The notes: generated from the sequence alone by a model not told the origin. Positions 8,262 through 31,485 are shown, counted from the first letter of the stretch. The stretch: DNA of 64,000 nt from a virus (IMGVR_UViG_3300017783_000007:14496-78495), one strand, 5' to 3'. Program-made: numbers and translations.

Positions 8262-11078
8262 TTATGATGACCAGGCTGGCATATTTGCGGAGCCTAAAAT
8301 TCCTCTATAATAGTCATGTATTTTCTGCATATTAGCTGTAGATAAAACATTATCATACACAATAAGTGCTCTAACATGGTGAGGTTTTCTAAACGTTGCA
8401 GAAACATACCCATTAAAGTCTATCCCGCTAGGGAATACAGCCCCTGATATTATAGCAGTATTATACTTAGATTGCTCATGAGCATCAAATGATGTATTTC
8501 TATCATTCAGGACGGTATTACCGTTAACTCTATGTTCCCGAGTTTCTCCACTATGAGTATTAATTGCTGAAGTTTGACCGGTAGTTGACCCGTCTTGGAG
8601 TACATAAGCGTAAGTACTCGAATTACTACCATAGCTCCACAAAAGAGTATTTTCTAGTGTAGTTGGTGTGTGATAAATTAAAATAACAGTCTTAGCTTTT
8701 CCACTCCCTGTACCCGAAAGTGCAGTAGGAAATTCAAAGTTTCCTACGCTCTCCCCGCCCGCCGCAAATTGCATTGCAGCTACACTATGAGCGGTTGTGC
8801 TAGAAGAGTATGTTCCACCAGAAAAAGTTATATTGTTACTATTAGAAGAAATATCAGTCCACGTTGTACCTGAGCCCCCATAACTACTGGAGTCTCCAAA
8901 GTCCCAAAATCCTATTAAACCTGATATACTAGTAGGTCCAAAAGATAATGTAAACGTTGAAGAAGCACTGTTAGTTCTTACACCATCAAAAGCCTTAAAT
9001 CTAGCAGTAAATGTTCCGCCATTAGACTCATTAGTACTAGGAGTTACTGTGAATGTGCCCCCACTTTGGGTAATTGTAGCTTGAGCTTGATTAGAAGGGC
9101 TGGTATCATGACTATAAGTCACATCGAACCCTTCTGGATCTGTAGCTGCTACAGTAACAGTAGTTGCTGTGCCGTCCGCTTCTAGTGCGTAGGAAGCTGC
9201 GGGACTAGTAGTGAATTCAGGCAGTGTGTTTACTCCGCTAAAAATTCTATCCCACTCCGTACCGTCCCAGCCATAAAAAGCTTTCACATCCGTTACAAAT
9301 GCTAGGTCTCCACCAGTATTTCCAGAAGAAGGTAGAGCTGCTATGTTTGCATATGTAGTTACACCACCTCCTGGGAGGAGCAGCCCGGCTGCCGCTGCTG
9401 CTGCAATTTCGCTTTTTACAATTAACTTAGTCGCTGAAACAGCGGTTCCTGCTAATACTGAAGGAGATCCCGCTGTTGTTGACAGTGTACCGTCGTTTTG
9501 TATGTAATAAGACTGCCCGGCAGTTAGCCCAGACTGAGCATCATCTACTGAACCTATAAGTTGAACTGTAGCAGTAGCAGAATTAGCATAGGCCGCATCC
9601 GATACTCCTATGTAGTTACTTGCTGTAAGATTTGTTGAAGTTGAGGCTGCCCTAGCTGTTTGCTTTACACGAGCTGTTCCACGGTTAGAGTTTCCTCTGT
9701 CCCTATAAGCGAGTACTACTTTGTTTGAATTTGAGTCAAAAGTTGTACCATAATTATTATCTGATTCACCACTGTTGTATACCTCTGCTGAACCCAGAGT
9801 AAGACTTGTCCCGCTCACAGTACACTCACGAAGAGTACCGTACCAAGAGTTGGCTACATCTAAGTAGGTAATTACAATTTTATTAGTATTTGAGTCAAAA
9901 ACAACACTATTATCATACATGCCTCCCGTCGTAATCCCAGTAACTTCTGTTCCAAAACTAATACTGCTACCGCTCACTGTACCTACCCTGATTGCTCCTG
10001 CAGCAGAATTAGCATAATACATTGCTACGACTTTATTTGAGTTTGAGTCAAAACCGAGAGCAATGTCATTAGCTCCATTAGAACTGACACTCACGGCAGT
10101 ACCAAAACTAATACTTGTTCCAGATACTGTACCTACAATTGCTTTAGTAGAACGAGAACTATCTGAGTTGTTTCCGTCCACGTAGACTAATACGCATTTA
10201 TTTGAGTTTGAATCAAATACAACATCTCCCGCCTTGCTCGCTCCTGTTGTACCGTTATAAAGTACACGACTACCAAAACTAATACTTGTTCCAGATACTG
10301 TACCTACTCTTACCGCTGCATGGAACCCAGTATTTGTAGAGCTAACGTAAGCAGCTCCTTTATATACATAACAGACTACAACTTTATTTGCATATGAGTC
10401 AAAAGTGATACCCCCTCTATTGGCAAAGGAGGACGAACCTATGTCACTGGTCATATCAGAAATAGGCTCCATAATGGTTGGCGAGCCAAAACTAATACTT
10501 GTTCCAGATACTGTACCTACAATTGCGGTAGCTCGGTCCCTCGAATACGTTGTACCACTGATAGTCTCGGCATGCTTATCCTGATATACAATTACAATTT
10601 TATTTGAATTTGAGTCAAAAGTGATCATAGGCCAGCTAGTTTCTCTTGTATTAAATACCACTTCACTTCCAAAACTAATACTGTTACCGGACACTGTACC
10701 TACGATTGCCGTTCCGTAGTTACTGTTACCTGCATCCCTATAAGCGAGTACTACTTTGTTTGAATTTGAGTCAAAAGTTGCACTGGCGCCTTGCTGTCCT
10801 GTATTAGCTGTGCTGTCATTAAATACAGTCTCACTACCTAAAGCAGCAGCAATCGCACTAACCTCTGAGCCTGCCACAGCACTTACAGTACCATCAGAGT
10901 TTACTATAACCATATCTCCATTTGCAAGAGCCCCACTCGCAGTAGCTGTGAGAGTAGGATTCGCTGCTGAACTAGAAGTAATTTTCCATTTTTCGGTAGA
11001 ACTATTATAAGTGTAATTCCTACCATCCGCTGTTATTGTGTCTCCATTACTGGGACTATCTGTAAAGTTAATTGCCAT
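8262..11078 (-). CDS. Modular fibre/adhesin protein (N-terminal plug, beta-propeller, cadherin/Ig-like domain, LamG-like C-terminus)
   Basis: MAINFTDSPSNGDT N-terminus. About 6 FDSNSNKVV...GTVSGxSISFG blades. TDPEGF Ig-like unit. LIGFWDFGDSSSYGGSGTTWTDIS start and ALIVYDNVLS end typical of phage LamG/ConA-like domains. Confidence 0.75.
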   Translation of the reverse strand: MAINFTDSPSNGDTITADGRNYTYNSSTEKWKITSSSAANPTLTATASGALANGDMVIVNSDGTVSAVAGSEVSAIAAALGSETVFNDSTANTGQQGASATFDSNSNKVVLAYRDAGNSNYGTAIVGTVSGNSISFGSEVVFNTRETSWPMITFDSNSNKIVIVYQDKHAETISGTTYSRDRATAIVGTVSGTSISFGSPTIMEPISDMTSDIGSSSFANRGGITFDSYANKVVVCYVYKGAAYVSSTNTGFHAAVRVGTVSGTSISFGSRVLYNGTTGASKAGDVVFDSNSNKCVLVYVDGNNSDSSRSTKAIVGTVSGTSISFGTAVSVSSNGANDIALGFDSNSNKVVAMYYANSAAGAIRVGTVSGSSISFGTEVTGITTGGMYDNSVVFDSNTNKIVITYLDVANSWYGTLRECTVSGTSLTLGSAEVYNSGESDNNYGTTFDSNSNKVVLAYRDRGNSNRGTARVKQTARAASTSTNLTASNYIGVSDAAYANSATATVQLIGSVDDAQSGLTAGQSYYIQNDGTLSTTAGSPSVLAGTAVSATKLIVKSEIAAAAAAGLLLPGGGVTTYANIAALPSSGNTGGDLAFVTDVKAFYGWDGTEWDRIFSGVNTLPEFTTSPAASYALEADGTATTVTVAATDPEGFDVTYSHDTSPSNQAQATITQSGGTFTVTPSTNESNGGTFTARFKAFDGVRTNSASSTFTLSFGPTSISGLIGFWDFGDSSSYGGSGTTWTDISSNSNNITFSGGTYSSSTTAHSVAAMQFAAGGESVGNFEFPTALSGTGSGKAKTVILIYHTPTTLENTLLWSYGSNSSTYAYVLQDGSTTGQTSAINTHSGETREHRVNGNTVLNDRNTSFDAHEQSKYNTAIISGAVFPSGIDFNGYVSATFRKPHHVRALIVYDNVLSTANMQKIHDYYRGILGSANMPAWSS

Positions 11079-11080
11079 TT

Positions 11081-11398
11081 TTATACCTCTATAATGTTAA
11101 CGCTTAGAGCAGAATTCCACAATATATCAAGCTGTTTAGCCCACATATTGTAATGCGACTTTATATCTTGTTTATTTTCAGGAAGTTTAGATAAACTCCT
11201 TACATATTCTACTGTAAAAGTGTCTAATAATTCTTGCTCAGTATTAAACTTCATTTTTTTAGGCTCAAAAATCCAAAAAACATCTTTAGTTAAACTCTCA
11301 TCCGTTTCACTTACTAAGGTTATATTCGCTTGTATATACTTAATAGTATTGTCTACATGATATACCTTAACAGAGTTCCATTGTTCTATAAAATTCAT
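11081..11398 (-). CDS. Hypothetical protein
   Basis: Tightly packed in the operon. Likely ATG at 11398 with GGGAG SD, rather than GTG 11410. Confidence 0.65.
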   Translation of the reverse strand: MNFIEQWNSVKVYHVDNTIKYIQANITLVSETDESLTKDVFWIFEPKKMKFNTEQELLDTFTVEYVRSLSKLPENKQDIKSHYNMWAKQLDILWNSALSVNIIEV

Positions 11399-31182: not shown

Positions 31183-31191
31183 AGTAATCTC

Positions 31192-31485
31192 CTAGATTTC
31201 TACCCATTGGAAAGAGCTGCCATCATAATAATAGATGTATGTTTTTAAATCAGCAGTATCTCTCCACATATCTCCTTCTTGGGCGGGACTGGGTGCAGTA
31301 GCAGATTGAACTAAAAATACTGAGCCACGATTAATATGTACAATACTTTCAGTGCCGCCAACACTCTTCTTAATGTACATATCTCCATCATAGGTATTAA
31401 TTGCAACTTCTCCAAGTTCAAGTTGCGAAGTGGTAGGAGCGGTATTGGCAGAGCCAGACCGCTTTAATTTGATAGTTTGTGCCAT
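31192..31485 (-). CDS. Small two-module fibre adaptor
   Basis: Consists almost entirely of a MAQTIKLKRS...GEVAIN module plus an APSPAQEGDMWRD...QWVEI module. AGGAG SD. Confidence 0.75.
   Translation of the reverse strand: MAQTIKLKRSGSANTAPTTSQLELGEVAINTYDGDMYIKKSVGGTESIVHINRGSVFLVQSATAPSPAQEGDMWRDTADLKTYIYYYDGSSFQWVEI

Follow-up and report, generated by a model that had tools for sequence, protein, structure and literature searches.

Two predicted beta-meander modules in the tail-fibre gene arrays of marine phages: a candidate system for docking fibres in gene order

Several podoviruses (Klebsiella KP32, K11 and KP34, Escherichia coli G7C, and K1-5/SP6) have been modelled with an architecture of anchor, branching domain and docking peptide (PMC6872550), and the interaction of branching domain with docking peptide has been validated experimentally by engineering (PMC13352976). 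In the PhiK64-1 group the counts of the two parts are nearly matched, with four peptides and five branching domains (PMC6872550). Branched assemblies are also described for the tailspike complex (TSP1-4) of CBA120, of the Ackermannviridae (PMC11414711), and for the apparatus of RaK2/PhiK64-1 with its multiple receptor-binding proteins (RBPs) (PMC10253068). Here we analyse the tail-fibre operon in a 64,000-nucleotide (nt) stretch of viral DNA (IMGVR_UViG_3300017783_000007:14496-78495; hereafter the window, to which positions refer), lying within a single-contig virus record of 78,495 bp. Its fibre genes carry two small recurrent modules: a plug of about 32 amino acids (aa), always N-terminal, and a socket of about 45 aa. 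The modules recur together in marine phages of different morphotypes, their counts are related, and the order of the genes that carry them is directional. Reading from the genes, we rate the chance that plugs dock into sockets, in a branched form, at about even.

The KP32/G7C type resembles the present arrangement in two respects. In both, a primary protein has its own virion anchor and an internal docking domain, and in both the secondary RBPs, encoded downstream, begin with a short conserved N-terminal element, with modules reused. The candidate docking domain differs: here it is a beta-meander of about 45 aa, there it is T4gp10-like. Neither Pfam nor PHROGs gave a T4 gp10-like match over any socket in the window proteins, and an ESM Atlas lead to T4_gp9_10_N for residues 1-215 of one of the fibres, of 426 aa, scored only 0.91. 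Moreover, the plug is predicted to be a folded unit of about 32 aa homologous to the docking domain itself, and the putative chains here, in marine siphoviruses and cyanomyoviruses, would run up to seven or eight genes deep. Since architecture and gene order match but the T4gp10-like domain is absent, we regard the system as a likely functional analogue built from new modules, not as a member of that type. The CBA120 and RaK2/PhiK64-1 complexes are alike in that several RBPs are held by their N-terminal parts in one branched complex with a single baseplate attachment; they differ in using XD/T4gp10-like domains, neither module is known to have been described from them, and the N-terminus of CBA120 TSP4 came up in the fold search as a weak match only (Z 2.8).

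Hidden Markov models (HMMs) were built from the four window copies of each module, and every stop-to-stop frame, in all six frames of the 78,495-bp genome, was scanned. The plug (MAxNFxxSPSNGDTxTxxGxTYTYNSxxxxW) gave exactly four matches genome-wide (E 8e-22 to 2e-25; next best, E 0.24), all at the N-termini of minus-strand open reading frames (ORFs). These encode a giant fibre of 3207 aa (21559..31182; plug 31087-31182, residues 1-32, E 2.4e-23), which also matches phrog_24456, 'tail fiber protein' (E 1.3e-71); a fibre of 1544 aa (15216..19850; plug 19752-19850, E 8e-22), matched by many PHROG tail-fibre families; the fibre of 426 aa (12811..14091; plug 13996-14091, E 1.4e-24); and a protein of 938 aa from the last gene of the operon (8262..11078; plug 10983-11078, E 1.8e-25). 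All four genes are preceded, at a distance of about 8 nt, by a ribosome-binding site of the GGAG/GAGG type. The socket (SDTAPSSPSxGDLWFDxxxLxxYIYYxDGSSxQWV), often flanked by Gly-rich linkers, gave four strong matches genome-wide (E 2.5e-28 to 5e-33). One forms the very C-terminus (residues 54-97, ending ...QWVEI at the stop) of a 97-aa protein, also encoded on the minus strand (31192..31485; socket 31195-31323, E 2.5e-28). The others lie in the 3207-aa protein, about 100 aa from its C-terminus (21868-22008, residues 3059-3105; HMM match over residues 3059-3118, E 1e-32), in the interior of the 1544-aa protein (16455-16595, residues 1086-1132; match over 1086-1145, E 1.7e-32), and between Gly runs in the 426-aa protein (13474-13614, residues 160-206; match over 160-215, E 4.9e-33).

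Four plugs and four sockets in one genome are far beyond chance. The scan upheld what the sequence-only reading, an earlier inspection of the same DNA, had said of their number, coordinates and distribution over the proteins: the 97-aa gene has only a socket, the 938-aa gene only a plug, and the 3207-, 1544- and 426-aa genes have both. A divergent fifth socket, which it had placed at about 33350-33460, is present as a match in a 140-aa ORF, but a weak one (E 1.5e-3 with the four-copy HMM, 2e-2 with a larger HMM), and we call that unit a socket tentatively. DNA alignments of the module copies have many synonymous differences; as synonymous sites differ among the copies, selection acts on the peptides and the conservation is at the protein level. 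On the same ground, recent gene conversion or a recombination tract was rejected as the source of the conservation. An N-glycosylation sequon (NFT) in the plug was likewise considered and rejected, most relatives having NFP.

Relatives in IMG/VR yielded 215 plugs and at least 554 sockets. The plug stood at the start of its ORF in almost all of 194 matches, and plug genes form tandem arrays. Both modules were mapped with fixed thresholds on 31 IMG/VR records or large parts of records. Genomes commonly having many of one module and none of the other, the outcome that the sequence-only reading had itself named as speaking against pairing, were not seen from the plug side: among longer records plugs never occurred without sockets, whether in IMG/VR (34/34) or in IMG/VR and cultured phages together (39/39). 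Seven cultured marine phages comprised five T4-like cyanophages with both modules and two podoviruses with neither; Synechococcus phages S-H34 and ACG-2014f are among the cultured carriers. The carriers include the window siphovirus and T4-like Kyanoviridae, which are of different morphotypes. Because the modules occur in siphoviruses as well as myoviruses, any partner of the plug must be just as portable, and no module other than the socket was seen to travel with it. In the other direction, a plug lay within 10 kb in 66 of 78 loci found through the socket. Megablast found no match among cultured phages to a 9-kb part of the operon.

One of the cultured T4-like cyanophages, Synechococcus phage ACG-2014f (NC_026927.1, 210545-218114; locus L080), has a socket near the C-terminus (residues 1513-1541 of 1586) of a giant protein annotated as 'baseplate wedge subunit', and three small plug-first 'tail collar' proteins are encoded within 3 kb after the socket gene.

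Plug and socket counts, given here in that order, are 4/4 in the window and 5/5, 4/4, 2/2 and 6/7 in its relatives. Two complete records of 95-101 kb have 7/7 and 8/8, and many simple arrays have 2/2. Unequal counts include 6/7, 5/6, 4/5, 5/8 and 7/10, and, with plugs in excess, 3/1, 4/1 and 3/2; strict equality of plugs and sockets as a law was therefore rejected, there being exceptions in both directions. Plug-only genes are as many as spare sockets in 26 of 50 arrays where shuffling gives 13, and, by whole records, in 15 of 26 where 6.3 are expected, the kinship of arrays being uncontrolled in both comparisons. A third conserved fibre N-terminus, MATYSSIRYVS.., was seen inside plug arrays (G009:44142-45491 and G030:34287-35759, the records behind loci L011 and L067); counted post hoc as an alternative plug, it would balance the 6/7 and 5/6 arrays.

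Gene order is directional. Read in the direction of transcription, 23 of 27 arrays offer a free socket before every plug, a rule that random gene orders satisfy 2-50% of the time, and about 5% of the time in many arrays. In nearly all these arrays the first gene has sockets but no plug, and the last a plug but no socket. The adjacency test was repeated on contigs ascertained through the socket alone: a plug ORF came next after a socket-only ORF in 17 of 46 cases and stood immediately before one in 0 of 43. Often only 4-35 nt separate the socket-only ORF from the plug ORF; apart from the modules, the proteins are unrelated. In the window, the stop codon of the 97-aa gene lies 9 nt ahead of the start of the 3207-aa plug gene.

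Some proteins consist of little besides these modules. Seventeen full-length homologues of the 97-aa protein, 97-102 aa long, all end in W(V/I)(E/Q)(I/V) followed by a stop, exactly at the last socket strand. In four related contigs the giant plug gene again follows a homologue of the 97-aa gene; members of this family, 97-105 aa long, are composed of an anchor and a terminal socket. A 136-aa protein (L047:6190-6597) is plug, socket, socket and nothing else, and proteins of 97 and 152 aa starting with a plug plus a socket were also found. Connector-only proteins, as their composition lets us call them, seem hard to explain except as adaptors. Socket-only root proteins begin with further conserved N-termini, namely MAQTIKLKR.., MVARIQIRRDTSADW.. 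and MATIVTRSGKGSPLT.. (read from the architecture only), and such a diversity of N-terminal anchors upstream of the sockets is as expected for an adaptor. Separately, one record (G003, behind locus L021) has, far from its main fibre array, a 1258-aa protein (66863-70636) in which long collagen-like G-x-y repeats come after a socket at residues 3-53, and, encoded directly after this protein, a 175-aa plug-only protein (66325-66849).

The co-occurrence across morphotypes, the directional adjacency, the enriched balance of counts and the connector-only proteins suggest docking, and from them we infer the binding of plug to socket, the stoichiometry of the joint and its branched geometry. On this proposal many marine phages would use the beta-meander module as a portable connector kit by which several receptor-binding fibres share one attachment point. 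The socket would be carried by a root protein with a lineage-specific virion anchor, and also by fibres; the plug would be the docking module of each further fibre. In the window, the 97-aa adaptor would anchor by its MAQTIKLKR domain, and its terminal socket would receive the giant fibre of 3207 aa. Next, the 1544-, 426- and 938-aa fibres would one after another dock onto internal sockets of the proteins before them, each as a side branch with its own distal tip, and the outcome would be a daisy-chained, branched fibre tree laid out in gene order. A fuller version of this scheme we hold tentatively, the chances leaning against its being right in every part: a portable socket and its homologous plug would be shared across morphotypes, one plug per free socket in gene order would spell out the adhesin tree, the tiny connectors would be adaptors or one-to-two splitters, and fibres would be swappable by recombination. 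A complex prediction that combined three 97-aa adaptors with residues 1-60 of the 3207-aa protein, also in three copies, scored 0.78, and one unrelated control 0.61; we count the result neither way.

The sequence-only reading had arranged the same genes as a strict linear chain joined end to end: the 97-aa protein would initiate it, the 3207-, 1544- and 426-aa proteins would extend it and the 938-aa protein would terminate it, perhaps with promiscuous pairing. Window gene order and one-to-one counts fit such a chain, and the socket of the 97-aa protein is truly C-terminal and adjoins the next plug gene. In the other three proteins, though, 100-440 aa separate the socket from the C-terminus. 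At the C-terminal end of the 1544-aa protein is a Peptidase_S74 domain (PF13884; residues 1443-1507, about 15330-15524; E 4.3e-16, 59.4 bits against a cut-off of 22), an intramolecular chaperone that marks a free distal tip. The C-terminal 250 aa or so of the 938-aa protein (about 8289-9026) have no Pfam match; the ten nearest named ESM Atlas clusters all carry PF13385, Laminin_G_3 (score 0.93; structure TM 0.5-0.6 by query; a lead only), and the protein probably ends in a concanavalin-A/LamG-like lectin domain. Internal sockets, together with the tips that the 1544- and 938-aa proteins appear to have of their own, make side branches the more likely form of joint. Relatives with two or three sockets per protein imply branching, and C-terminal tip motifs recur on other proteins with or without a socket, both of which tell against a linear chain. 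We judge the strict linear chain highly improbable; a daisy chain of side branches, or a tree, appears to fit better than one linear fibre.

In the T4 long tail fibre, the separate trimeric segments gp34-gp35-gp36-gp37 are joined non-covalently in gene order, the joints being strictly end to end, with gp35 as a monomeric hinge and without a reusable sequence module. The window differs in that two modules recur at each presumed joint and most sockets are internal. Joints of the T4 type, from C-terminal end to N-terminal end, are not matched in the window, where only the 97-aa protein has a terminal socket and the 1544-aa protein ends in the S74 chaperone.

What the modules are in structural terms bears on whether they bind each other. 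Aligned through their enlarged alignments, plug and socket match over the whole core (hhalign probability 87%, E 4e-6), with FPxSPSNGDTxTxxGxTYTYNSTxxxW set against APSSPSxGDLWFDSSxxLYVYYxDGxSSQWV, and a cyanophage plug is also matched by the enlarged socket HMM. An AF2 monomer model of the 97-aa adaptor (predicted local distance difference test, pLDDT, 82.6) has the socket as a four-stranded beta-meander with pLDDT above 90; the plug is modelled as a three-stranded meander that corresponds to the last three socket strands (pLDDT 72-78). On these profiles and models, plug and socket are homologues that have diverged from one small beta-meander module. With one fold and matching predicted strand patterns, they are beads of one family rather than complementary shapes.

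No Pfam family covers either module, PHROGs have only generic 'tail fiber' or 'connector' families there, and no description of the two motifs was found in the literature searched. Sequence searches of the PDB with the 426-aa and 97-aa proteins and with the plug and socket profiles gave nothing significant, only chance-level matches that included WW domains at E >1. With the 97-aa model, Foldseek returned no match at E up to 1e-3, and the best VIA-align match (Z 4.3) is too weak to name a fold. The weak matches (Z 3.9-4.3) lean towards small beta domains found in trimeric tailspikes and towards the trimerisation domain of collagen XV/XVIII. The latter (NC1; PDB 3n3f, 9bnb) resembles the socket in being a small four-stranded beta unit that trimerises beside a collagen triple helix; the match (Z 3.9, root-mean-square deviation 1.9 Å over 37 residues) falls below 5, the level for a fold claim, and there is no sequence similarity, so that the likeness is an analogy at most.

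Such results would also suit a rival explanation, in which plugs and sockets belong to one fold family of generic beads for trimerisation or registration and do not bind each other. Four alternative fibres would all be anchored by their shared N-terminal bead to another site, on the tail tip or on a primary fibre, and the internal beads would do no more than nucleate or punctuate the trimeric shaft. The regularities of count and order would come from modular duplication combined with the usual order of genes, primary fibre first and accessory fibres after.

Several observations weigh against docking, some of them in favour of such beads. Since plug and socket are homologous, their conservation would be accounted for by a generic structural role. 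Single proteins carry tandem runs of 2-7 sockets; among 222 distinct sockets, a Gly run lies just ahead of 78, 29 stand directly before collagen-like G-x-y repeats and 11 end their ORF, and the tandem runs and adjoining collagen-like repeats fit a trimerisation or registration domain. The window fibres carry further small units of the general module pattern, for example GQVL..W and ..GD.AY....LY.Y.G..W. Counts are out of balance in 19 arrays with excess sockets and five with excess plugs; a whole plug-excess 50-kb contig has three plugs and one socket, and in its family two or three fibres with the plug alone come after a fibre that has both modules, the 50-kb contig having no further socket. 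Conversely, several socket loci have no plug within 10 kb. In socket-seeded loci alone, plug-only genes equal spare sockets in 11 of 24 against 6.9 expected, and the rank correlation is about zero. Many arrays are related and are not independent samples. Balanced counts could also arise by unequal crossing-over that duplicates the segment from a socket to the next plug, a pattern that the similarities between the 1544- and 426-aa proteins and between the 426- and 938-aa proteins fit. Finally, the PDB sequence searches found no solved structure showing a plug-socket interaction. The comparative check that the sequence-only reading had proposed, whether plug and socket counts co-vary across related genomes, nonetheless turned out mostly in favour of that reading.

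Generic beads leave a number of things unexplained, however. The last gene of an array is nearly always without a socket and the first without a plug, the 17-to-0 asymmetry between downstream and upstream neighbours and the enriched equality of counts have no ready cause, and a 136-aa protein of plug, socket and socket would lack a purpose. They also need a separate docking site that is itself portable between siphoviruses and myoviruses. On balance we think this explanation rather unlikely.

The socket core of aromatic residues (W, F/Y, YxYY, W) is extremely conserved across very diverse fibres, and tandem arrays are typical of avidity modules; both would suit small aromatic-rich beads that bind a ligand, lectin-like or binding metal or Ca, and add avidity for the host surface, their link to plug genes being incidental. 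No family or structure match supports ligand binding, however, the end of a 97-aa protein close to the tail tip would be an odd site for an adhesin, and the directional coupling to plug genes would go unexplained. This we rank as the least probable of the readings considered.

Should docking of plugs into sockets prove true, the multi-fibre architecture of host recognition would be readable from sequence in abundant ocean phages, for example cyanophages and their relatives; we know of no solved structure for any of those fibres. The modules would then be a natural kit for mounting new RBPs, and a marine counterpart, made from different and mutually homologous modules, of the pair with which Klebsiella phages are now re-targeted (PMC13352976). 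Should they be trimerisation beads and nothing more, what is left is a widespread, unnamed family of fibre repeats outside Pfam.

The minus strand of the window has a complete siphovirus structural module by PHROG and Pfam searches: large terminase, portal, protease/major head protein, major tail protein, tape measure, lambda M/L/K/I-like proteins and a 1996-aa J-like tip protein. The gene of this last, a central tail fibre or tip attachment protein (34126..40116, minus strand; phrog_31 'central tail fiber J', E 3.6e-130; Pfam Phage-tail_3, E 6.7e-23), closes the tail module, and the fibre operon begins directly downstream of it. Thirteen minus-strand genes follow, encoding 117, 140, 580, 97, 3207, 564, 1544, 203, 172, 426, 386, 109 and 938 aa, several of them labelled tail fibres by PHROGs. 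Five (564, 203, 172, 386 and 109 aa) have neither plug nor socket and were absent from the sequence-only reading.

The 140-aa protein (33291..33713, minus strand), whose divergent socket-like unit lies at about 33315-33440, ends TLDAGAF. The next gene (31529..33271, minus strand) encodes a 580-aa fibre protein with PHROG fibre and decoration matches; its translation begins MAQTIQIKRR..., ends TLDGGTY and has no plug or socket. An HMM of the N-terminus of the 97-aa family (MAQTIKLKRS... in the window) matches the 580-aa protein (E 7e-5), and when this N-terminal domain was tested PHROG tail-fibre N-termini matched residues 1-53 (phrog_17885, E 7.9e-9). The MAQTI... domain of the two proteins, which may be Mtd_N/HylP-like, had no Pfam match at E up to 0.1.

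The 564-aa fibre-like protein (19860..21554, minus strand) lies inside the array, has only weak Ig/cadherin-like Pfam matches, and holds at its N-terminus another unit of the general module pattern (...ANMAALTALTGMAAGDQAYV...LYNGSGW). The 203- and 172-aa genes stand between the 1544- and 426-aa fibres (14094..15216, minus strand) and gave no informative Pfam or PHROG family match; one possibility is that they encode assembly factors. Residues 128-292 or so of the 426-aa protein duplicate residues 1065-1230 or so of the 1544-aa protein, including the socket and the ensuing ..SPSSGQVLKWSGSEWAPA.. unit, which is consistent with a segmental duplication inside the array. Between the 426- and 938-aa fibres lie the 386- and 109-aa genes (11081..12787, minus strand), whose translations contain no plug or socket. 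The 386-aa protein (11627-12787; MYAKLKFPSNTTNGE..., MYAKL.FP...), a possible assembly factor, has no family match; a 422-aa homologue (G001:63165-64430) stands beside a socket-bearing root protein in an unrelated 94.6-kb phage contig.

A second junction pattern was also noticed, in which directly after an ORF ending ...(T/I)LD(A/G)G(A/T/S)(F/Y) and a stop comes a gene whose product begins MAQTI(K/Q/R)(I/L)KR... In the window it spans 31192-33713, from the 140-aa through the 580-aa to the 97-aa gene, and it recurs in four related contigs (G006, G007, G008 and G012) and in three unrelated socket-seeded loci (L209, L213 and L215). Elsewhere in the window, a 671-aa ORF (51378-53393) has PHROG matches to a head maturation protease (residues 9-310) and a major head protein (residues 22-635), and may be a fused protease-capsid gene.

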